DNA of 64,000 nt from Eledone cirrhosa (Eukaryota). Where the stretch lies: the NCBI GenBank assembly GCA_964016885.1, contig OZ024742.1, positions 256,060,001 through 256,124,000 on the forward strand. The letters are read 5' to 3'. How positions within the stretch are numbered: the stretch's first letter is position 1; every line of letters starts with the position of its first letter. A program made the translations under genes and the position numbers. Below the pieces are notes generated by a model, which did not search any database, was not told the DNA's origin, and saw only the letters and a list, made by a program, of their open reading frames with translations. Shown one piece after another: positions 19,750 through 59,390 of the stretch.

Positions 19750-22700
19750 TATTTTTCGAATATTCTATGTCTATATTCACATATATATCGCTATTTCAGA
19801 GCATTTATTCCAATTTCTAATTTCTGCCGGACCGGCAACCGCTCTTTCAAACCAGTTCCTGTACACAGCTAAGTATTCTATAAGTCTCTAGCTGTGTCAT
19901 TCTCGATAAAAGCACTGGATATGTAGTCCTGATGATTTCTAACAAGAATGAAACGCGTAGATTACTTCCCTTGCTTTTATCGAGAATCTAATTGTAATAC
20001 GTGACGTATTCTATTCTATAGCGATTAGGTCTTCAAAATGTTTATTATAAACATACAGAATATTTTCGAATATTCTATGTCTATATTCACATATATATCG
20101 CTATTTCAGAGCATTTATTTCAATTTCTAATTTCTGCCGGACCGGCAACCGCTCTTTCAAACCAGTTCCTGTACACAGCTAAGTATTCTATAAGTCTCTA
20201 GCTGTGTCATTCTCGATAAAAGCACTGGATATGTAGTCCTGATGATTTCTAACAAGAATGAAACGCGTAGATTACTTCCCTTGCTTTTATCGAGAATCTA
20301 ATTGTAATACGTGACGTATTCTATTCTATAGCGATTAGGTCTTCAAAATGTTTATTATAAACATACAGAATATTTTCGAATATTCTATGTCTATATTCAC
20401 ATATATATCGCTATTTCAGAGCATTTATTCCAATTTCTAATTTCTGCCGGACCGGCAACCGCTCTTTCAAACCAGTTCCTGTACACAGCTAAGTATTCTA
20501 TAAGTCTCTAGCTGTGTCATTCTCGATAAAAGCACTGGATATGTAGTCCTGATGATTTCTAACAAGAATGAAACGCGTAGATTACTTCCCTTGCTTTTAT
20601 CGAGAATCTAATTGTAATACGTGACGTATTCTATTCTATAGCGATTAGGTCTTCAAAATGTTTATTATAAACATACAGAATATTTTCGAATATTCTATGT
20701 CTATATTCACATATATATCGCTATTTCAGAGCATTTATTCCAATTTCTAATTTCTGCCGGACCGGCAACCGCTCTTTCAAACCAGTTCCTGTACACAGCT
20801 AAGTATTCTATAAGTCTCTAGCTGTGTCATTCTCGATAAAAGCACTGGATATGTAGTCCTGATGATTTCTAACAAGAATGAAACGCGTAGATTACTTCCC
20901 TTGCTTTTATCGAGAATCTAATTGTAATACGTGACGTATTCTATTCTATAGCGATTAGGTCTTCAAAATGTTTATTATAAACATACAGAATATTTTCGAA
21001 TATTCTATGTCTATATTCACATATATATCGCTATTTCAGAGCATTTATTCCAATTTCTAATTTCTGCCGGACCGGCAACCGCTCTTTCAAACCAGTTCCT
21101 GTACACAGCTAAGTATTCTATAAGTCTCTAGCTGTGTCATTCTCGATAAAAGCACTGGATATGTAGTCCTGATGATTTCTAACAAGAATGAAACGCGTAG
21201 ATTACTTCCCTTGCTTTTATCGAGAATCTAATTGTAATACGTGACGTATTCTATTCTATAGCGATTAGGTCTTCAAAATGTTTATTATAAACATACAGAA
21301 TATTTTCGAATATTCTATGTCTATATTCACATATATATCGCTATTTCAGAGCATTTATTCCAATTTCTAATTTCTGCCGGACCGGCAACCGCTCTTTCAA
21401 ACCAGTTCCTGTACACAGCTAAGTATTCTATAAGTCTCTAGCTGTGTCATTCTCGATAAAAGCACTGGATATGTAGTCCTGATGATTTCTAACAAGAATG
21501 AAACGCGTAGATTACTTCCCTTGCTTTTATCGAGAATCTAATTGTAATACGTGACGTATTCTATTCTATAGCGATTAGGTCTTCAAAATGTTTATTATAA
21601 ACATACAGAATATTTTCGAATATTCTATGTCTATATTCACATATATATCGCTATTTCAGAGCATTTATTCCAATTTCTAATTTCTGCCGGACCGGCAACC
21701 GCTCTTTCAAACCAGTTCCTGTACACAGCTAAGTATTCTATAAGTCTCTAGCTGTGTCATTCTCGATAAAAGCACTGGATATGTAGTCCTGATGATTTCT
21801 AACAAGAATGAAACGCGTAGATTACTTCCCTTGCTTTTATCGAGAATCTAATTGTAATACGTGACGTATTCTATTCTATAGCGATTAGGTCTTCAAAATG
21901 TTTATTATAAACATACAGAATATTTTCGAATATTCTATGTCTATATTCACATATATATCGCTATTTCAGAGCATTTATTCCAATTTCTAATTTCTGCCGG
22001 ACCGGCAACCGCTCTTTCAAACCAGTTCCTGTACACAGCTAAGTATTCTATAAGTCTCTAGCTGTGTCATTCTCGATAAAAGCACTGGATATGTAGTCCT
22101 GATGATTTCTAACAAGAATGAAACGCGTAGATTACTTCCCTTGCTTTTATCGAGAATCTAATTGTAATACGTGACGTATTCTATTCTATAGCGATTAGGT
22201 CTTCAAAATGTTTATTATAAACATACAGAATATTTTCGAATATTCTATGTCTATATTCACATATATATCGCTATTTCAGAGCATTTATTCCAATTTCTAA
22301 TTTCTGCCGGACCGGCAACCGCTCTTTCAAACCAGTTCCTGTACACAGCTAAGTATTCTATAAGTCTCTAGCTGTGTCATTCTCGATAAAAGCACTGGAT
22401 ATGTAGTCCTGATGATTTCTAACAAGAATGAAACGCGTAGATTACTTCCCTTGCTTTTATCGAGAATCTAATTGTAATACGTGACGTATTCTATTCTATA
22501 GTGATTAGGTCTTCAAAATGTTTATTATAAACATACAGAATATTTTCGAATATTCTATGTCTATATTCACATATATATCGCTATTTCAGAGCATTTATTC
22601 CAATTTCTAATTTCTGCCGGACCGGCAACCGCTCTTTCAAACCAGTTCCTGTACACAGCTAAGTATTCTATAAGTCTCTAGCTGTGTCATTCTCGATAAA

Positions 22701-25669
22701 AGCACTGGATATGTAGTCCTGATGATTTCTAACAAGAATGAAACGCGTAGATTACTTCCCTTGCTTTTATCGAGAATCTAATTGTAATACGTGACGTATT
22801 CTATTCTATAGCGATTAGGTCTTCAAAATGTTTATTATAAACATACAGAATATTTTCGAATATTCTATGTCTATATTCACATATATATCGCTATTTCAGA
22901 GCATTTATTCCAATTTCTAATTTCTGCCGGACCGGCAACCGCTCTTTCAAACCAGTTCCTGTACACAGCTAAGTATTCTATAAGTCTCTAGCTGTGTCAT
23001 TCTCGATAAAAGCACTGGATATGTAGTCCTGATGATTTCTAACAAGAATGAAACGCGTAGATTACTTCCCTTGCTTTTATCGAGAATCTAATTGTAATAC
23101 GTGACGTATTCTATTCTATAGCGATTAGGTCTTCAAAATGTTTATTATAAACATACAGAATATTTTCGAATATTCTATGTCTATATTCACATATATATCG
23201 CTATTTCAGAGCATTTATTCCAATTTCTAATTTCTGCCGGACCGGCAACCGCTCTTTCAAACCAGTTCCTGTACACAGCTAAGTATTCTATAAGTCTCTA
23301 GCTGTGTCATTCTCGATAAAAGCACTGGATATGTAGTCCTGATGATTTCTAACAAGAATGAAACGCGTAGATTACTTCCCTTGCTTTTATCGAGAATCTA
23401 ATTGTAATACGTGACGTATTCTATTCTATAGCGATTAGGTCTTCAAAATGTTTATTATAAACATACAGAATATTTTCGAATATTCTATGTCTATATTCAC
23501 ATATATATCGCTATTTCAGAGCATTTATTCCAATTTCTAATTTCTGCCGGACCGGCAACCGCTCTTTCAAACCAGTTCCTGTACACAGCTAAGTATTCTA
23601 TAAGTCTCTAGCTGTGTCATTCTCGATAAAAGCACTGGATATGTAGTCCTGATGATTTCTAACAAGAATGAAACGCGTAGATTACTTCCCTTGCTTTTAT
23701 CGAGAATCTAATTGTAATACGTGACGTATTCTATTCTATAGCGATTAGGTCTTCAAAATGTTTATTATAAACATACAGAATATTTTCGAATATTCTATGT
23801 CTATATTCACATATATATCGCTATTTCAGAGCATTTATTCCAATTTCTAATTTCTGCCGGACCGGCAACCGCTCTTTCAAACCAGTTCCTGTACACAGCT
23901 AAGTATTCTATAAGTCTCTAGCTGTGTCATTCTCGATAAAAGCACTGGATATGTAGTCCTGATGATTTCTAACAAGAATGAAACGCGTAGATTACTTCCC
24001 TTGCTTTTATCGAGAATCTAATTGTAATACGTGACGTATTCTATTCTATAGCGATTAGGTCTTCAAAATGTTTATTATAAACATACAGAATATTTTCGAA
24101 TATTCTATGTCTATATTCACATATATATCGCTATTTCAGAGCATTTATTCCAATTTCTAATTTCTGCCGGACCGGCAACCGCTCTTTCAAACCAGTTCCT
24201 GTACACAGCTAAGTATTCTATAAGTCTCTAGCTGTGTCATTCTCGATAAAAGCACTGGATATGTAGTCCTGATGATTTCTAACAAGAATGAAACGCGTAG
24301 ATTACTTCCCTTGCTTTTATCGAGAATCTAATTGTAATACGTGACGTATTCTATTCTATAGCGATTAGGTCTTCAAAATGTTTATTATAAACATACAGAA
24401 TATTTTCGAATATTCTATGTCTATATTCACATATATATCGCTATTTCAGAGCATTTATTCCAATTTCTAATTTCTGCCGGACCGGCAACCGCTCTTTCAA
24501 ACCAGTTCCTGTACACAGCTAAGTATTCTATAAGTCTCTAGCTGTGTCATTCTCGATAAAAGCACTGGATATGTAGTCCTGATGATTTCTAACAAGAATG
24601 AAACGCGTAGATTACTTCCCTTGCTTTTATCGAGAATCTAATTGTAATACGTGACGTATTCTATTCTATAGCGATTAGGTCTTCAAAATGTTTATTATAA
24701 ACATACAGAATATTTTCGAATATTCTATGTCTATATTCACATATATATCGCTATTTCAGAGCATTTATTCCAATTTCTAATTTCTGCCGGACCGGCAACC
24801 GCTCTTTCAAACCAGTTCCTGTACACAGCTAAGTATTCTATAAGTCTCTAGCTGTGTCATTCTCGATAAAAGCACTGGATATGTAGTCCTGATGATTTCT
24901 AACAAGAATGAAACGCGTAGATTACTTCCCTTGCTTTTATCGAGAATCTAATTGTAATACGTGACGTATTCTATTCTATAGCGATTAGGTCTTCAAAATG
25001 TTTATTATAAACATACAGAATATTTTCGAATATTCTATGTCTATATTCACATATATATCGCTATTTCAGAGCATTTATTCCAATTTCTAATTTCTGCCGG
25101 ACCGGCAACCGCTCTTTCAAACCAGTTCCTGTACACAGCTAAGTATTCTATAAGTCTCTAGCTGTGTCATTCTCGATAAAAGCACTGGACATGTAGTCCT
25201 GATGATTTCTAACAAGAATGAAACGCGTAGATTACTTCCCTTGCTTTTATCGAGAATCTAATTGTAATACGTGACGTATTCTATTCTATAGCGATTAGGT
25301 CTTCAAAATGTTTATTATAAACATACAGAATATTTTCGAATATTCTATGTCTATATTCACATATATATCGCTATTTCAGAGCATTTATTCCAATTTCTAA
25401 TTTCTGCCGGACCGGCAACCGCTCTTTCAAACCAGTTCCTGTACACAGCTAAGTATTCTATAAGTCTCTAGCTGTGTCATTCTCGATAAAAGCACTGGAT
25501 ATGTAGTCCTGATGATTTCTAACAAGAATGAAACGCGTAGATTACTTCCCTTGCTTTTATCGAGAATCTAATTGTAATACGTGACGTATTCTATTCTATA
25601 GCGATTAGGTCTTCAAAATGTTTATTATAAACATACAGAATATTTTCGAATATTCTATGTCTATATTCA
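19750..25669 (+). repeat. Retrozyme-like array A2: ~19.1 tandem 310-bp monomers inverted relative to A1 (19 hammerheads on +)
   Basis: Reverse complement of the A1 unit; HHR at 19923+310k up to 25503. Confidence 0.92.
19923..19965 (+). ncRNA. Representative type I hammerhead ribozyme of the 310-bp monomer (allele A)
   Basis: gtagtc-CTGATGA-t-ttct(aaca)agaa-t-GAAA-cgcg-TA-gattac. Predicted cut after 19959 (GUA). Stem I is extended by a 16-bp helix, 19899-19914 with 19972-19987. Confidence 0.9.
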
Positions 25670-26334
<665 letters not shown>

Positions 26335-28553
26335 GAAATTGGAATAAATGCTCTGAAATAGCGATATATATGTGAATATAGACATAGAATATTCGAAAAT
26401 ATTCTGTATGTTTATAATAAACATTTTGAAGACCTAATCGCTATAGAATAGAATACGTCACGTATTACAATTAGATTCTCGATAAAAGCAAGGGAAGTAA
26501 TCTACGCGTTTCATTCTCGTTAGAACTCATCAGGACTACATATCCAGTGCTTTTATCGAGAATGACACAGCTAGAGACTTATAGAATACTTAGCTGTGTA
26601 CAGGAACTGGTTTGAAAGAGCGGTTGCCGGTCCGGCAGAAATTAGAAATTGGAATAAATGCTCTGAAATAGCGATATATATGTGAATATAGACATAGAAT
26701 ATTCGAAAATATTCTGTATGTTTATAATAAACATTTTGAAGACCTAATCGCTATAGAATAGAATACGTCACGTATTACAATTAGATTCTCGATAAAAGCA
26801 AGGGAAGTAATCTACGCGTTTCATTCTCGTTAGAACTCATCAGGACTACATATCCAGTGCTTTTATCGAGAATGACACAGCTAGAGACTTATAGAATACT
26901 TAGCTGTGTACAGGAACTGGTTTGAAAGAGCGGTTGCCGGTCCGGCAGAAATTAGAAATTGGAATAAATGCTCTGAAATAGCGATATATATGTGAATATA
27001 GACATAGAATATTCGAAAATATTCTGTATGTTTATAATAAACATTTTGAAGACCTAATCGCTATAGAATAGAATACGTCACGTATTACAATTAGATTCTC
27101 GATAAAAGCAAGGGAAGTAATCTACGCGTTTCATTCTCGTTAGAACTCATCAGGACTACATATCCAGTGCTTTTATCGAGAATGACACAGCTAGAGACTT
27201 ATAGAATACTTAGCTGTGTACAGGAACTGGTTTGAAAGAGCGGTTGCCGGTCCGGCAGAAATTAGAAATTGGAATAAATGCTCTGAAATAGCGATATATA
27301 TGTGAATATAGACATAGAATATTCGAAAATATTCTGTATGTTTATAATAAACATTTTGAAGACCTAATCGCTATAGAATAGAATACGTCACGTATTACAA
27401 TTAGATTCTCGATAAAAGCAAGGGAAGTAATCTACGCGTTTCATTCTCGTTAGAACTCATCAGGACTACATATCCAGTGCTTTTATCGAGAATGACACAG
27501 CTAGAGACTTATAGAATACTTAGCTGTGTACAGGAACTGGTTTGAAAGAGCGGTTGCCGGTCCGGCAGAAATTAGAAATTGGAATAAATGCTCTGAAATA
27601 GCGATATATATGTGAATATAGACATAGAATATTCGAAAATATTCTGTATGTTTATAATAAACATTTTGAAGACCTAATCGCTATAGAATAGAATACGTCA
27701 CGTATTACAATTAGATTCTCGATAAAAGCAAGGGAAGTAATCTACACGTTTCATTCTCGTTAGAACTCATCAGGACTACATATCCAGTGCTTTTATCGAG
27801 AATGACACAGCTAGAGACTTATAGAATACTTAGCTGTGTACAGGAACTGGTTTGAAAGAGCGGTTGCCGGTCCGGCAGAAATTAGAAATTGGAATAAATG
27901 CTCTGAAATAGCGATATATATGTGAATATAGACATAGAATATTCGAAAATATTCTGTATGTTTATAATAAACATTTTGAAGACCTAATCGCTATAGAATA
28001 GAATACGTCACGTATTACAATTAGATTCTCGATAAAAGCAAGGGAAGTAATCTACGCGTTTCATTCTCGTTAGAACTCATCAGGACTACATATCCAGTGC
28101 TTTTATCGAGAATGACACAGCTAGAGACTTATAGAATACTTAGCTGTGTACAGGAACTGGTTTGAAAGAGCGGTTGCCGGTCCGGCAGAAATTAGAAATT
28201 GGAATAAATGCTCTGAAATAGCGATATATATGTGAATATAGACATAGAATATTCGAAAATATTCTGTATGTTTATAATAAACATTTTGAAGACCTAATCG
28301 CTATAGAATAGAATACGTCACGTATTACAATTAGATTCTCGATAAAAGCAAGGGAAGTAATCTACGCGTTTCATTCTCGTTAGAACTCATCAGGACTACA
28401 TATCCAGTGCTTTTATCGAGAATGACACAGCTAGAGACTTATAGAATACTTAGCTGTGTACAGGAACTGGTTTGAAAGAGCGGTTGCCGGTCCGGCAGAA
28501 ATTAGAAATTGGAATAAATGCTCTGAAATAGCGATATATATGTGAATATAGAC
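26335..28553 (-). repeat. Retrozyme-like array B1: ~7.2 monomers of 310 bp (allele B), 7 hammerheads on the minus strand
   Basis: All copies read tcattctCgttagaaCtcatcag, versus tcattctTgttagaaAtcatcag in array A. Confidence 0.92.
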
Positions 28554-30102
28554 ATATTCACATATATATCGCTATTTCAGAGCATTTATTCCAATTTCTA
28601 ATTTCTGCCGGACCGGCAACCGCTCTTTCAAACCAGTTCCTGTACACAGCTAAGTATTCTATAAGTCTCTAGCTGTGTCATTCTCGATAAAAGCACTGGA
28701 TATGTAGTCCTGATGAGTTCTAACGAGAATGAAACGCGTAGATTACTTCCCTTGCTTTTATCGAGAATCTAATTGTAATACGTGACGTATTCTATTCTAT
28801 AGCGATTAGGTCTTCAAAATGTTTATTATAAACATACAGAATATTTTCGAATATTCTATGTCTATATTCACATATATATCGCTATTTCAGAGCATTTATT
28901 CCAATTTCTAATTTCTGCCGGACCGGCAACCGCTCTTTCAAACCAGTTCCTGTACACAGCTAAGTATTCTATAAGTCTCTAGCTGTGTCATTCTCGATAA
29001 AAGCACTGGATATGTAGTCCTGATGAGTTCTAACGAGAATGAACCGCGTAGATTACTTCCCTTGCTTTTATCGAGAATCTAATTGTAATACGTGACGTAT
29101 TCTATTCTATAGCGATTAGGTCTTCAAAATGTTTATTATAAACATACAGAATATTTTCGAATATTCTATGTCTATATTCACATATATATCGCTATTTCAG
29201 AGCATTTATTCCAATTTCTAATTTCTGCCGGACCGGCAACCGCTCTTTCAAACCAGTTCCTGTACACAGCTAAGTATTCTATAAGTCTCTAGCTGTGTCA
29301 TTCTCGATAAAAGCACTGGATATGTAGTCCTGATGAGTTCTAACGAGAATGAAACGCGTAGATTACTTCCCTTGCTTTTATCGAGAATCTAATTGTAATA
29401 CGTGACGTATTCTATTCTATAGCGATTAGGTCTTCAAAATGTTTATTATAAACATACAGAATATTTTCGAATATTCTATGTCTATATTCACATATATATC
29501 GCTATTTCAGAGCATTTATTCCAATTTCTAATTTCTGCCGGACCGGCAACCGCTCTTTCAAACCAGTTCCTGTACACAGCTAAGTATTCTATAAGTCTCT
29601 AGCTGTGTCATTCTCGATAAAAGCACTGGATATGTAGTCCTGATGAGTTCTAACGAGAATGAAACGCGTAGATTACTTCCCTTGCTTTTATCGAGAATCT
29701 AATTGTAATACGTGACGTATTCTATTCTATAGCGATTAGGTCTTCAAAATGTTTATTATAAACATACAGAATATTTTCGAATATTCTATGTCTATATTCA
29801 CATATATATCGCTATTTCAGAGCATTTATTCCAATTTCTAATTTCTGCCGGACCGGCAACCGCTCTTTCAAACCAGTTCCTGTACACAGCTAAGTATTCT
29901 ATAAGTCTCTAGCTGTGTCATTCTCGATAAAAGCACTGGATATGTAGTCCTGATGAGTTCTAACGAGAATGAAACGCGTAGATTACTTCCCTTGCTTTTA
30001 TCGAGAATCTAATTGTAATACGTGACGTATTCTATTCTATAGCGATTAGGTCTTCAAAATGTTTATTATAAACATACAGAATATTTTCGAATATTCTATG
30101 TC

Positions 30103-30107
<5 letters not shown>
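28554..30107 (+). repeat. Retrozyme-like array B2: 5.0 monomers inverted relative to B1, 5 hammerheads on +
   Basis: The junction gtgaatat-agac-atattcac (28542-28561) is a fold-back with a 4-nt loop. HHR at 28704-28746 reads CTGATGA-g-ttct(aacg)agaa-t-GAAA. Confidence 0.92.
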
Positions 30108-30146
<39 letters not shown>

Positions 30147-30148
30147 CA

Positions 30149-31312
30149 TTGCTGAACTCCTTTGTAGAGTTTTTTTCAGAATGTATTTGACTGCTATTTC
30201 TTGTAAATAAACATTCACTTCCATCTTGACGTCACTAGCCCCGTTTTTTCCTCATGTGCTTTTTCATAAATACACATGAAGGCGAACTAGCCAGTTTTAG
30301 AATTCCCTTTTTCGGATTATATTACTGTGAGAGCCCTGGTTTTCTGTTGAGCTCTGCTGATGATTGAAATTCCAACCGTGACCATCTCCACTGAAAGTTT
30401 TCATGAAATAGTCTTTTAAGACTATACAGAGCAATTCATGTTATTCCAAATTGAAAGATAAGTGTTTCAAACTTTATTTTATCATGAGTTAAATGTCTAT
30501 GGATTTTTCCCTGGATTTTACTAAATTCTGTGGATGAATTTATATCCTGATTCTCTTTTGAGATGAGTTTGAGTTATTTTTCTTAAATCTTTCTTTAACT
30601 ACTTTTCCCATCTTGACGTTATAGTCGCATATATGTTATAGAATGCCGTTAGCTTCTTGCTAAAACAATCTCTATACCTCTCATTTATATTTATACTCGG
30701 ATTCTTTTCCTAGAGTGCTTAAACTATCTGTGACTAATCCCGGTTTTTTTCATAAAAACTGTGGTAATTATTGCTATTTTGCTGAACTCCTTTGTAGAGT
30801 CTTTTTCAGAATGTATTTGACTGCTATTTCTTGTAAATAAACATTCACTTCCATCCTGACGTCACTAGCCCCGTTTTTTCCTCATGTGCTTTTTCATAAA
30901 TACACATGAAGGCGAACTAGCCAGTTTTAGAATTCCCTTTTTCGGATTATATTACTGTGAGAGCCCTGGTTTTCTGTTGAGCTCTGCTGATGATTGAAAT
31001 TCCAACCGTGACCATCTCCACTGAAAGTTTTCATGAAATAGTCTTTTAAGACTATACAGAGCATTTGATGTTATTTCAAATTGAAGGATAAGTGTTTCAA
31101 ACTTTATTTTATCATGAGTTAAAGGTCTATGGATTTTTCCATGGATTTTACTAAATTCTGTGGATGAATTTATATCCTGATTCTCTTTTGAGATGAGTTT
31201 GAGTTATTTTTCCTAAATCTTTCGTTAACTACTTTTCCCGTCTTGACGTTATAGTCGCATATATGTTATAGAATGCCGTTAGCTTCTTGCTAAAACAATC
31301 TCTATACCTCTC

Positions 31313-31318
<6 letters not shown>
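30149..31318. repeat. Direct tandem duplication, 630-bp period, ~1.9 copies, bounded by (TA)n
   Basis: gctgaactcc occurs at 30151 and 30781. Confidence 0.88.
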
Positions 31319-31367
<49 letters not shown>

Positions 31368-53085: not shown

Positions 53086-53148
<63 letters not shown>

Positions 53149-53149
53149 T

Positions 53150-56100
53150 TAAGTCGTTTGGAAGACTCGACAATGCACATGGGTAAATCTCCGGGTAACA
53201 AGATCCGGTGGTGGAGAGAGAGATGTAAGTGGGTGTACGTTGAGATGCGTGGTGTGTATAAGACGTGTAGAAGAATGAAGGAAAGAGTATAAAGGATAAA
53301 ATAAAAATAAGAACACGAGAGAGAGTTACCTTGGGAGAGATTTAATTGTCCCTATATATTTCGGATTCACATCCATCAACTGGGGTTTTTTCCGGGGTGG
53401 GGAAAGGTTGTCTATCGGAAAGGTGCGAAACGCGTCCTCCGTTGTTGGTTGTTTTGAATATCTGAGGTATTCAGCAGAGCGCGCGTGCGCGTGAAATGGG
53501 GTTGGTCGGGCAGAGGTCAGCGGCCGAATGTGGGAGTGGGGTGCTGCTAGCTGTCAGTCCATTCTCTGCCTGTGTGGTAAATGTTACTGTGTGTGTGTGT
53601 GTGCGTGTGTTGTTGTCTCGCTTGAGTGTGTGTGTGTGTTTGCCTTGTTCCTCTGTATTGGCAGTGTAGTATGTTCGTATGGTGGAATATTACTGTATGT
53701 GTGTGCGTGTGCGTGTGTAGTTGTCTCGTTTGTGTGTGTGTGTGCGTGTGTTGCTGCATCGTTTGTTAACTTAAACCAGCCACCTAATTTCGCTTCTCTC
53801 GGATCGATTGTTTATTTGTTTATTTGCGGTGCAAGGCGTTTGATAAAAAGCGCTTCCTTGATACGTAACGTGCCGACGTTTCTTTCAGTCGCTAGAATTG
53901 TGACAATCGCCCTTCCGTCTCTGTTTCCGCATTTGTCTATGTGTTTCCGGAAAGACGAGGCCCTAGTTTTAGTGTGTTCCTTGATCCGGATGTGCAAAGG
54001 TCGGATTGTGCTACCTATATAGTATTGGTTGCACCTGTCACATTCTATCTTATACACGACGTATGTGCGTAGGCAACAGTTCGCATTGCGTATCGGGCAG
54101 TCTCTGAGGGAGCACGCGTAAGTAGATTTCCCGGGTTTCCTGGAGGGGCATCTTCGCAGGGAGGGGCCAGAGTGGGCCAGGTGGATGTCGAGGCCTTCCC
54201 TCCGTATAGCCTTGCGGATAGCGTTGGTGGTATTCTCGCCCAGGTGTAGCATTTTAAGGAAGCACTTGCGTTGGGTGCCTCTCTGTCTCTTGTGTCTGGT
54301 GTCTCCTACTCTGTCTGTGAGCGAGGTAGGGTACCCGTTCGTCTCCAGCACCTCGAGGAATCGCTTGGTACGAGTGACACCACTCGCGGGATCGCTGCAT
54401 CTGTTTTTGATTCGCGCGATATCGTTCGTGATGTATCCTCTTTTGGCACTGTTAGGGACGGCGGACTTGTAGTGAACGAACAGGTCCCTGCAGGCTGCCT
54501 TTCGGTAGAAGTTGCAGTGGATCCTTCCCTGTTCCGTGATGTTGATTCGGAGGTCGAGGAGGGCAAGTGACCCGTCTTCGTTGGGGTGTTCAACACTGAA
54601 GTCAATGTTCTCGTCCGTGTTGTTGAACGTCTCATAGATTCTGTTCGCCGTGTCTTGGGAAGTTGTGAGGATGAGGATATCGTCCACGTACCTTGAGAAA
54701 AAGGCGACGGCGTTGGGGTGGCAGGCGTTGAGTGCCTTGCGCTCGAGGTTGTCCATGTAAGAGATCGCCAGCACACCCGACAGGCTTGATCCCATGGGCA
54801 ATCCCGAGGTTTGTTGGTATGTTTGGTCAAAGAATCCGAAGTAGGTGTTGTGGACGACGATGGATAGGAGTTGGTGGATGTCAGTGGTGGTGAGCCCGAA
54901 GCAGTGTAGGTCGGTGGATTGAACGCGTTCCATCAGTATATTGACGGCCGGGAGTGCCGGGACCGAGGTGTAGAGAGCGACTACATCAAGGCTGAAGGCA
55001 TATCTGTTATTCCTTCTGGTGTCGGGATCCATTTGATGCAGGCGTTTCAACACCTCCTCGGAGCTGTTAACGTGTCCCGGCAAGGTGACTATGATGGGCT
55101 TGAGTATTCTGGCTAGGAGCCATGACATTTTGTAGAGTGGTCCCTCCACGCTCGATACAATGGGCCTGATATTCAGGTCGGGTCTCTGTTTATGTGTTTT
55201 CACGAGGTTGTAGAAGGCGGGTAGTCTGCTGTTCCTCGTGAGGAGGTTGTATTTCAGCTTCTTCGGGAGCTTCCGCCGGTCGCAGATGTTGGTCCAGGCG
55301 GCGTTGATGTGCTCTTCTATCTGCGCGGGAGTGATTCCCGTGACCTTGGAGTAGAGGTTGTCATCGTCAAGGTGTTGGAGGGCCAGGTTGTTGTAGGCCT
55401 CTCTGCTGATGACGCAGAATTTTTTTCCCTTGTCGGAGGGGAGATAGATGAGGTTCTTCGATTTTAGGTTGGAGAGAGCGGTGAGTTGAGATTTGGTGAG
55501 GTTATGTGTTGTGCGTGTGTGTGTGTGTTTGTGAAGTATATCCGAGATGGACTTTTTTAGCCTGATGAGTTTAGTGTCGAGTTCGTGGTTGGTGTGTGGG
55601 GGGTGGAGTGGGTTGTCGGGGTGGTAAGTGGAGAACTTGGGGTGGGTTGCGTGGGCGCTGTTATTTTCTGTGGCGCTGTTGATGGCCGTCACCCATTTAA
55701 GTTGGTAAGCTTCTCGACAAAAGTTGGCCTCGATGTTGAGTTTGAGTCTGTCGTCTAGACGTTGTGAAACGATGAACTTGGGTCCGAGGTTTAGGAGTTT
55801 CAGCTCGTCGCTCGTGAGAGTGCCGGTTAGGTCGGTGACCAGGTGCGTCGCATCGTTGAGGTGTGGCTCGGTGTTGGTGGATGCGGCTGGCGGTTGTTAA
55901 GTTGTTGTTTTCCACGTGGTTCTGGTCTGTCTGTTCGTTAGTGTCGATGTTCTCGTTGTGGCGTTTCGACAAGATCCACTCATATTTTCGCTTGAGCCGT
56001 TTTTTCTCGTATTGGACTCTGGAGTGGTAGCACTGGTCGATTGCTTTAGTGATTTTCAGGAGTAAGTCCCCGGGTGCTATTGACAATCGATGTGTCCGCT

Positions 56101-56170
56101 CTGAGAGTGTCCGCTTATGGACGTGTAATTGGTGGTTGAGATGTCTCAGGATCTGTTTAATACACGTGCG
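53150..56170 (-). mobile_element. Near full-length Penelope-like retroelement inserted in (TA)n
   Basis: Has an N-terminal domain (55697-56170, frameshifted), an RT-GIY-YIG ORF, and a 3' UTR with an HHR-like motif at 53349-53385. (TA)n lies on both sides. Confidence 0.9.
53812..55692 (-). CDS. Penelope-like reverse transcriptase plus GIY-YIG endonuclease (626 aa; frame extends upstream to ~55860)
   Basis: PSDKG, FYNLVKTHK, IRPIVS, FSLDVVALYTSVP, QTSGLPMGS, RYVDD, LALLDL, FYRK, VVYKIECDRCNQYYIGST, LRIKEALFI. The upstream in-frame sequence includes VTDLTGTLTSDELKLLNLGPKF. Confidence 0.92.
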   Translation of the reverse strand: MTAINSATENNSAHATHPKFSTYHPDNPLHPPHTNHELDTKLIRLKKSISDILHKHTHTRTTHNLTKSQLTALSNLKSKNLIYLPSDKGKKFCVISREAYNNLALQHLDDDNLYSKVTGITPAQIEEHINAAWTNICDRRKLPKKLKYNLLTRNSRLPAFYNLVKTHKQRPDLNIRPIVSSVEGPLYKMSWLLARILKPIIVTLPGHVNSSEEVLKRLHQMDPDTRRNNRYAFSLDVVALYTSVPALPAVNILMERVQSTDLHCFGLTTTDIHQLLSIVVHNTYFGFFDQTYQQTSGLPMGSSLSGVLAISYMDNLERKALNACHPNAVAFFSRYVDDILILTTSQDTANRIYETFNNTDENIDFSVEHPNEDGSLALLDLRINITEQGRIHCNFYRKAACRDLFVHYKSAVPNSAKRGYITNDIARIKNRCSDPASGVTRTKRFLEVLETNGYPTSLTDRVGDTRHKRQRGTQRKCFLKMLHLGENTTNAIRKAIRREGLDIHLAHSGPSLRRCPSRKPGKSTYACSLRDCPIRNANCCLRTYVVYKIECDRCNQYYIGSTIRPLHIRIKEHTKTRASSFRKHIDKCGNRDGRAIVTILATERNVGTLRIKEALFIKRLAPQINK

Positions 56171-56552
56171 ATATATGCGGTTATATATATATATATATGT
56201 TGTGTAGGAGGTGAGTTTTATTGTAGCATAATAAAGCAATGCAAATATCGGATAAGTAGCACTCAACAGTTTATAGGACTGGAGTATAAATTATATAAAA
56301 TCAAAAGAAGGTTAAAAGAGTTCCATGTATTTTATTATGCGTATTTCAAAAGCAAATATCATCATGGAATGATATGTTGATGATATGTTGATGATATGTT
56401 GATTTAAAACTTCACTGCTCGCAAGTGTTTTTTAAGCTTCATATCATGTCTCCCTATTTTATCTGATGAGAACGCAAATATCATCCCATGATATTTGTTT
56501 TTGAAATGCTCATAATAAAATACATGGAACACATTAAACCATCTTTTGATTT

Positions 56553-59354: not shown

Positions 59355-59390
59355 TCTTTACGTTTCGGACACTAGACCTTCATCAGAAGA
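59355..59390 (-). ncRNA. Minimal type I hammerhead
   Basis: Minus strand reads tctt-CTGATGA-aggtctagtgtcc-GAAA-cg-TA-aaga. Confidence 0.62.

Follow-up and report, generated by a model that had tools for sequence, protein, structure and literature searches.

Allele-uniform inverted arrays of a hammerhead retrozyme in TA microsatellites of Eledone cirrhosa have an insertion footprint like that of PLEs

How do the tandem arrays of animal retrozymes arise? Two proposals compete, namely rolling-circle reverse transcription by Penelope-like elements (PLEs), put forward for metazoan non-LTR retrozymes that form up to 62-mers (Cervera and de la Pena 2020, PMC7229834), and local unequal exchange, discussed in a recent preprint. 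In its accessible part, the preprint derives animal retrozymes from PLEs as non-autonomous forms, resting this link on co-occurrence and on homology to pLTRs, and it considers unequal crossover as a means of local amplification (Li et al. 2026, 10.64898/2026.07.22.740005). In the locus analyzed here, a stretch of 64,000 nt from one haplotype (the window), two arrays of a 310-bp hammerhead repeat lie 665 bp apart, each with an allele of its own. An initial annotation had proposed that each array was copied from one RNA molecule in a single event.

The repeat occupies four arms, in which we counted 51 hammerhead cores. All four were aligned to a monomer from the window, numbered so that position 1 is the base after the predicted cleavage site. 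Array A has a left arm on the minus strand (13,574–19,749; 19.93 units, 20 motifs) and a right arm on the plus strand (19,748–25,669; about 19.1 units, 19 motifs), both with U10.1 and loop A. Array B has a minus-strand left arm (26,335–28,556; 7.17 units, 7 motifs) and a plus-strand right arm (28,554–30,106; about 5.0 units, 5 motifs), both with G10.1 and loop G. In each array, the minus arm precedes the plus arm and the RNA 5' ends meet at the centre. The initial annotation omitted this arrangement; what it called an array is in each case two inverted arms.

With a unit of 310 bp, a GC content of about 0.34 and no intact long ORF in the arrays, the element fits the metazoan non-LTR retrozymes, which are described as non-coding tandem units of 150–450 bp with a GC content under 50% and one type I hammerhead each (PMC7229834). 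The unit type is alike, and the axolotl HHR_Amex2 also has a basal U·U in helix II (PMC7229834). Arrays A and B differ from these elements, as described, in forming inverted pairs and in having two fixed end sites in (TA)n; the words “inverted”, “tail” and “microsatellite” do not occur in the main text of that paper.

The predicted fold is a type I hammerhead whose long stem I carries a UAU bulge; stem II has 4 bp and stem III 2 bp, the six bases of the latter being palindromic. Plus-strand examples are found at 28,698–28,750 for allele B, with its palindromic minimal stem III and predicted cleavage after 28,740, and at 20,537–20,589 for allele A, with predicted cleavage after 20,579. The conserved core was found in 51 of 51 units, one of which, in array B, bears a single change at 29,044 that abolishes A15.1. 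Rfam, at gathering score, gave no match across the window. When the 310-bp family is compared with a second hammerhead family in the window, with units of 461 bp, changes on both sides are seen in 7 of 16 pairs, and pairing holds in 93.8% of cells, against 37.5–50.5% in slid controls; the comparison comprises only two independent families, and the structure was drawn from those same sequences. At the level of sequence, these double-sided changes are good support for the hammerhead fold. The folding z-score of the monomer is -4.7 for B and -4.4 for A, with 0 of 100 shuffles equally good. In the minimum-energy fold of the monomer, stems I and II form and stem III is absent. Axolotl motifs with a short palindromic helix III are reported to cleave better as dimers (PMC7229834), and for Xenopus a failure to cleave is described for 8 of 9 predicted elements.

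The alignment separates the two arrays cleanly. T287>G and A295>G are present in all 12 B units and in 0 of 39 A units, and in the examples above they correspond to 28,717 (N10.1) and 28,725 (loop II) in B and to 20,556 and 20,564 in A. Among all 51 aligned units, none has the allele of the other array, and there is no further fixed difference between A and B. The initial annotation was thus right that each array is clonal for its own allele (39/39 and 12/12 units) and that both fixed differences lie in stem-loop II of the ribozyme, position 287 being N10.1 opposite U11.1 and position 295 lying in the loop. Two randomly placed differences would both fall within the 14-nt stem-loop II with a probability of 0.0019, and within the 60-nt ribozyme with a probability of 0.037 (calculated post hoc). 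The other internal variants, counted without four junction variants (19,752, 25,670, 30,108 and 30,111), number eight, or 5.0e-4 per base over 15,873 bp. Every one of them is a singleton; array A has three 1-nt indels and three substitutions, array B two substitutions.

In the circular monomer, the predicted pairing of stem II is about 0.15 with U10.1, 0.57 with G and 0.92 with A, and the loop base 295 makes no difference in the two-dimensional folding model. On this modelling, a difference in cleavage rate between alleles A and B is plausible. The initial annotation also pointed out that B changes loop II, which in natural hammerheads docks on the stem I bulge. The loop does change, but not at the docking base. 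In the conserved docking pair, loop II is reported to contribute its 3' A and the stem I loop its 5' U (PMC2632901); both alleles retain these two bases, and 295 is the penultimate base when the loop is read as one of 6 nt. We also considered that 287 and 295 form a compensating pair, and rejected it, since the loop base is without effect in the folding model and the two sites vary separately in a public sequencing run (X1).

Public runs place the two alleles in the variation of the family. Words of the family occur at 70–93% in 20 runs from 17 studies with 18 organism labels; four of the 24 runs listed were compared with the window. A Hi-C run (X23) gave 0 reads in 1,938 Mb and counts as no test, the other run with the same label having the element. 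Across the 576 contigs of run X1, variation reaches 2% or more at four places, and it is largest at 287 and 295. At position 287, a summed contig depth of 309,004 comprises 238,393 for T and 70,590 for A, with about 21 left over for G; at position 295, A accounts for 228,287 of 319,898. Such depths are no measure of copy number, and X1 may be the source from which the window itself comes. Runs X10 and X20 have a third haplotype, A/A, with a Watson-Crick A10.1-U11.1 pair, which is not the dominant allele of X1. Across the family as a whole, variation appears to be concentrated in stem-loop II, without 287 and 295 being locked together.

These data speak against the further claim of the initial annotation that B restores a G10.1-U11.1 pair. 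The direction is unsupported: U·U dominates run X1, recurs in the 461-bp family, where 6 of 7 aligned motifs are unpaired at 10.1/11.1, and is a known functional hammerhead variant (PMC3088659; PMC7229834). U·U appears to be the family norm, and the G·U of array B is more naturally understood as a rare and likely derived form than as a repair; alleles A and B would then be samples of a family that is polymorphic at stem-loop II. A-to-I editing was considered as the origin of B, given that two A>G changes would turn the A/A allele into B and that the host is a cephalopod. Editing is a weak candidate, since loop G is common in X1 and B has no other A>G change.

In X10 and X20, the element is present as one closed, flankless 310-nt contig each (matched to window positions 29,105–29,414), at depths of 34 and 18. 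Such a contig could be a circle, another species or carry-over, and a collapsed tandem array would look alike. We do not claim horizontal spread, as these low-depth contigs fit carry-over, diet or a related species as well. Two pattern scans of metagenome contigs and one of viral contigs gave 0 loci.

The ends of the arrays point more directly to their origin. All four outer ends of A and B sit in (TA)n. The left arms end, on the RNA 3' side, at monomer positions 172 (A) and 168 (B). The right arms, on the plus strand, end at position 130 in A (138, to 25,677, with TA microhomology) and near position 126 in B (139, to 30,119, with microhomology). Both end sites agree within 4 nt between arrays of different allele, for which the chance is about 8e-4 if ends are uniform. 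The offset between the two sites appears as a tail on the left arm's outer end only, of 40 nt in A (13,574–13,615, minus strand; overhang of 0 units plus 40 nt) and 42 nt in B (26,335–26,376, minus strand; overhang of 2 units plus 42 nt), or about 30–45 nt depending on how microhomology is assigned. Among the contigs listed for run X1, loose ends enter (TA)n at position 139 in at least 10 and at position 170 in at least one.

At the centre of array A (19,740–19,760), the arms have their 5' ends at positions 196 and 100, with a 2-nt overlap and one extra T. The centre of array B (28,542–28,561) is a palindrome with a 4-nt spacer (28,550–28,553), and its arms overlap by 3 nt, at positions 117 and 124. 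All four 5' ends lie 99–123 nt from the cleavage site. We therefore reject ribozyme cleavage as the terminator of the arms, and ribozyme activity is not an obvious setter of arm length.

Could the inversions and the uniformity have been created by fold-back chimeric reads or by polishing? Near-identical palindromic tandem arrays are hard to assemble, and 1-nt indels make up 3 of the 8 variants. A fold-back read artefact is, however, made less likely by the flanks, which do not mirror each other. The left flank of array A (13,274–13,573) is a (TA)n tract with C interruptions, the spacer between the arrays (25,670–26,334) is (TA)n with C interruptions strand-matched to the outer flanks, and array B is followed by (TA)n (30,107–30,146); the C interruptions are on one strand on both sides. 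Moreover, the 40-nt asymmetry occurs in both arrays and agrees with the loose ends in X1, and the two alleles are cleanly separated. We regard an artefact as highly improbable.

Some other features of the surroundings may be recorded here. About 11 kb at 1,280–12,453 are mostly (TA)n with C interruptions and hold no 310-bp unit, so that not all long TA tracts are hit. The left TA flank of array A adjoins a 5'-truncated, LINE-like 3' end on the minus strand (12,455–13,273; no match in Pfam), which we presume to be RTE-like. Just to the right of array B, at 30,149–31,325, lies a direct duplication of about 550 bp, 630 bp apart and 97.8% identical. An isolated minimal hammerhead-like motif is found at 59,386 on the minus strand, in a short element that ends in (CA)n/(TA)n.

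Inverted arms, a one-sided tail and a (TA)n target are known together from another class of elements. EN+ PLE insertions are described as partial tandems with an inverted, 5'-truncated copy, a one-sided tail of 30–40 bp and a bias to (TA)n or AT-rich targets (Craig et al. 2021), and head-to-tail insertions in several copies are likewise on record for the non-autonomous Chlamys elements of algae (Craig et al. 2021). In vitro, AT-rich DNA is nicked and extended on both strands by a purified PLE protein, which begins at two internal positions, one at each boundary of the tail (Frangieh et al. 2024, PMC11167929). Arrays A and B differ from EN+ PLEs in that they have no ORF, in their full type I hammerhead with a stem I bulge instead of the minimal PLE form, and in having 5–20 units in both arms.

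PLEs are also present in the window, a co-occurrence of the kind reported by Li et al. 2026 (10.64898/2026.07.22.740005). One copy (38,573–42,458) has an RT-like ORF (40,531–41,790) and a GIY-YIG ORF (39,907–40,530) with a stop between them, and a CX4CX2C motif of the kind linked to Neptune-type elements (Craig et al. 2021). It has an inverted 5' piece, a main end longer by about 70 nt, and (TA)n at either terminus; the named relatives of its protein, 2 of 20 matches, are from an octopod. A second copy on the minus strand (53,145–56,290) has a 694-aa RT and GIY-YIG frame, and a third on the plus strand (273–1,280) is a GIY-YIG fragment. Both have their 3' ends in (TA)n, which makes (TA)n ends in 3 of 3 copies inspected. 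A Pfam search gave GIY-YIG domains in the three PLE remnants, at E values from 6e-6 to 3e-4 and in one case below the cut-off, as well as one RVT_1 match. The pLTR homology of the preprint was not found here, an insertion footprint being found instead: in seven window regions tested, the monomer has only 10–15 nt matches to a PLE pLTR or terminus. The accessible part of the preprint contains no analysis of ends, tail or alleles.

The 461-bp hammerhead family (43,623–45,672) has a comparable plan, with an inverted piece of about 145 bp, about four direct units, (TA)n at both ends, and ends about 60 nt apart. Its stem-loop has U·U and AACA, as in allele A. It may represent a nested insertion, placed in an internal TA tract. 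Unlike A and B, this older array is not clonal, as copies C1 and C4, and likewise C2 and C3, share variants; arrays in this region can thus be composite or remodelled. A decayed relative with 75–80% identity lies at 42,690–43,570 and appears to follow this inverted-plus-direct plan. A terminal motif common to the 310-bp and 461-bp families is at chance level (a score as good is reached by 508 of the 16,328 pairs from the window and by 221 of the 5,000 shuffles). Candidate target-site duplications reach 37 bp at best for A and 15 bp for B, with a median of 22 and a maximum of 65 at random cuts, which were made in the tracts of A only.

Together, our data suggest that each array stems from one PLE-driven copying event on one RNA, to which we assign a probability of roughly 0.7, irrespective of how the second arm was made. 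The single event proposed in the initial annotation is thus supported mainly by the architecture, that is, by the inverted arms, the two fixed end sites and (TA)n, with clonality lending only moderate support. For the more specific version, in which a Penelope-type RT wrote each array at once into a TA microsatellite from one RNA and two priming sites, we see slightly less than even odds. Tandem transcripts would self-cleave to monomers, which then circularize. The PLE protein would nick both (TA)n strands, and the two 3'-OH ends would prime reverse transcription at sites about 40 nt apart (168–172 and 127–139), each reaction circling the template many times. The two cDNAs would finally join at their truncated ends via microhomologies of 2–3 nt, giving inverted arms and a one-sided tail. 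A common template would account for the single allele in both arms. Transcription, cleavage, circularization, PLE catalysis and the single template are all inferred. A circular template is not strictly required, since in vitro insertion worked with uncleaved linear RNA, the ribozyme being dispensable (Frangieh et al. 2024, PMC11167929).

Instead of a second priming, the same PLE event on one RNA could have made the second arm as a fold-back copy; the first cDNA, started at 168–172, would have folded onto and copied itself before joining the far side of the break at the TA-like site 127–139. The latter resembles (TA)n over 7–10 nt and the former over 0–2 nt, and the centre of array B has the form of a 3-bp snap-back with a 4-nt loop. 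The right arm of A equals the left arm minus the centre (214) and the tail (40), with no whole-unit difference. In all four cases, namely A, B, the 461-bp array and the PLE copy, it is the longer arm that bears the tail. The position of the tail and the hairpin centre of B fit fold-back at least as well as second priming. The centre of A, however, would need a 214-nt loop held by 2 nt, and B's right arm is two units short, A's arm lengths matching to the unit. None of the four private variants of the left arms is mirrored in the right arms, though these may postdate insertion. Furthermore, both ends of the tail are RT start sites in vitro (PMC11167929), and tails are described from either end of PLE insertions (Craig et al. 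2021). We consider fold-back rather unlikely, and second priming remains the preferred version.

A different history, which we judge unlikely, would begin with a short PLE-type seed of one or a few units per arm, followed by rapid expansion in place by slippage or unequal exchange. It accounts equally well for clonality and for the end signature, the shared variants of the 461-bp array are in its favor, and local amplification is argued for in the preprint (10.64898/2026.07.22.740005). It also requires that the arms came to similar lengths (19.9 and 19.1; 7.2 and 5.0), and 0 of the 8 variants are common to two units. For array A, the probability that all variants are singletons is 0.003 under a coalescent and 0.023 under a Yule model, or 0.028 and 0.14 with substitutions only; for array B, it is 0.18 and 0.31. 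With all variants counted, the Yule product of A and B is about 0.007; with substitutions only, values of 0.14 for A and 0.31 for B give no grounds to reject the Yule model. All of these probabilities lose their meaning should the variants be assembly errors.

No exchange of alleles is seen between A and B, and both arms of B bear an allele that is nearly absent from X1. The sharing of this rare allele by both arms speaks for one template or one donor. The template might have been a long, uncleaved read-through of a uniform array, or two RNAs of one donor locus, rather than one circle. Uncleaved RNA is the main substrate in vitro (PMC11167929), uniform donors of 20 units exist, array A being an example, and stem II is predicted to be weak in the U·U allele. 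On the other hand, some 19 intact ribozyme motifs would have to remain uncut, and related animal elements are reported to accumulate as monomers and circles (PMC7229834). This origin is in our view very unlikely, and copying from one RNA by a PLE remains the preferred reading.

Taken singly, the components are not new: elements of this class, the U·U variant, rolling-circle copying as an idea, and the PLE architecture were all known before. In the literature searched, mostly non-subscription papers without supplements, we found no description of an inverted-plus-tail footprint or of allele-marked arms for retrozyme arrays. As natural variation at a site where U·U is known to be tolerated, the difference between the alleles is modest, and the value of the locus is mostly in its architecture and less in the two bases. 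A bolder extension, which we hold to be doubtful, is that a single PLE complex may circle one 310-nt ribozyme from two starts and so build a palindrome of up to 12 kb in one step. Every young array would then be a snapshot of one RNA, and the N10.1 states (U, G and A) might tune self-cleavage, with the weak U·U favored in genomic copies and the stable A-U in free circles. The allele-marked arms offer a means to tell second priming from fold-back in the unexplained inverted structure of PLEs. A PLE footprint with ends at defined bases makes the question of a link between retrozymes and PLEs testable, and it names candidate start sites for reverse transcription.
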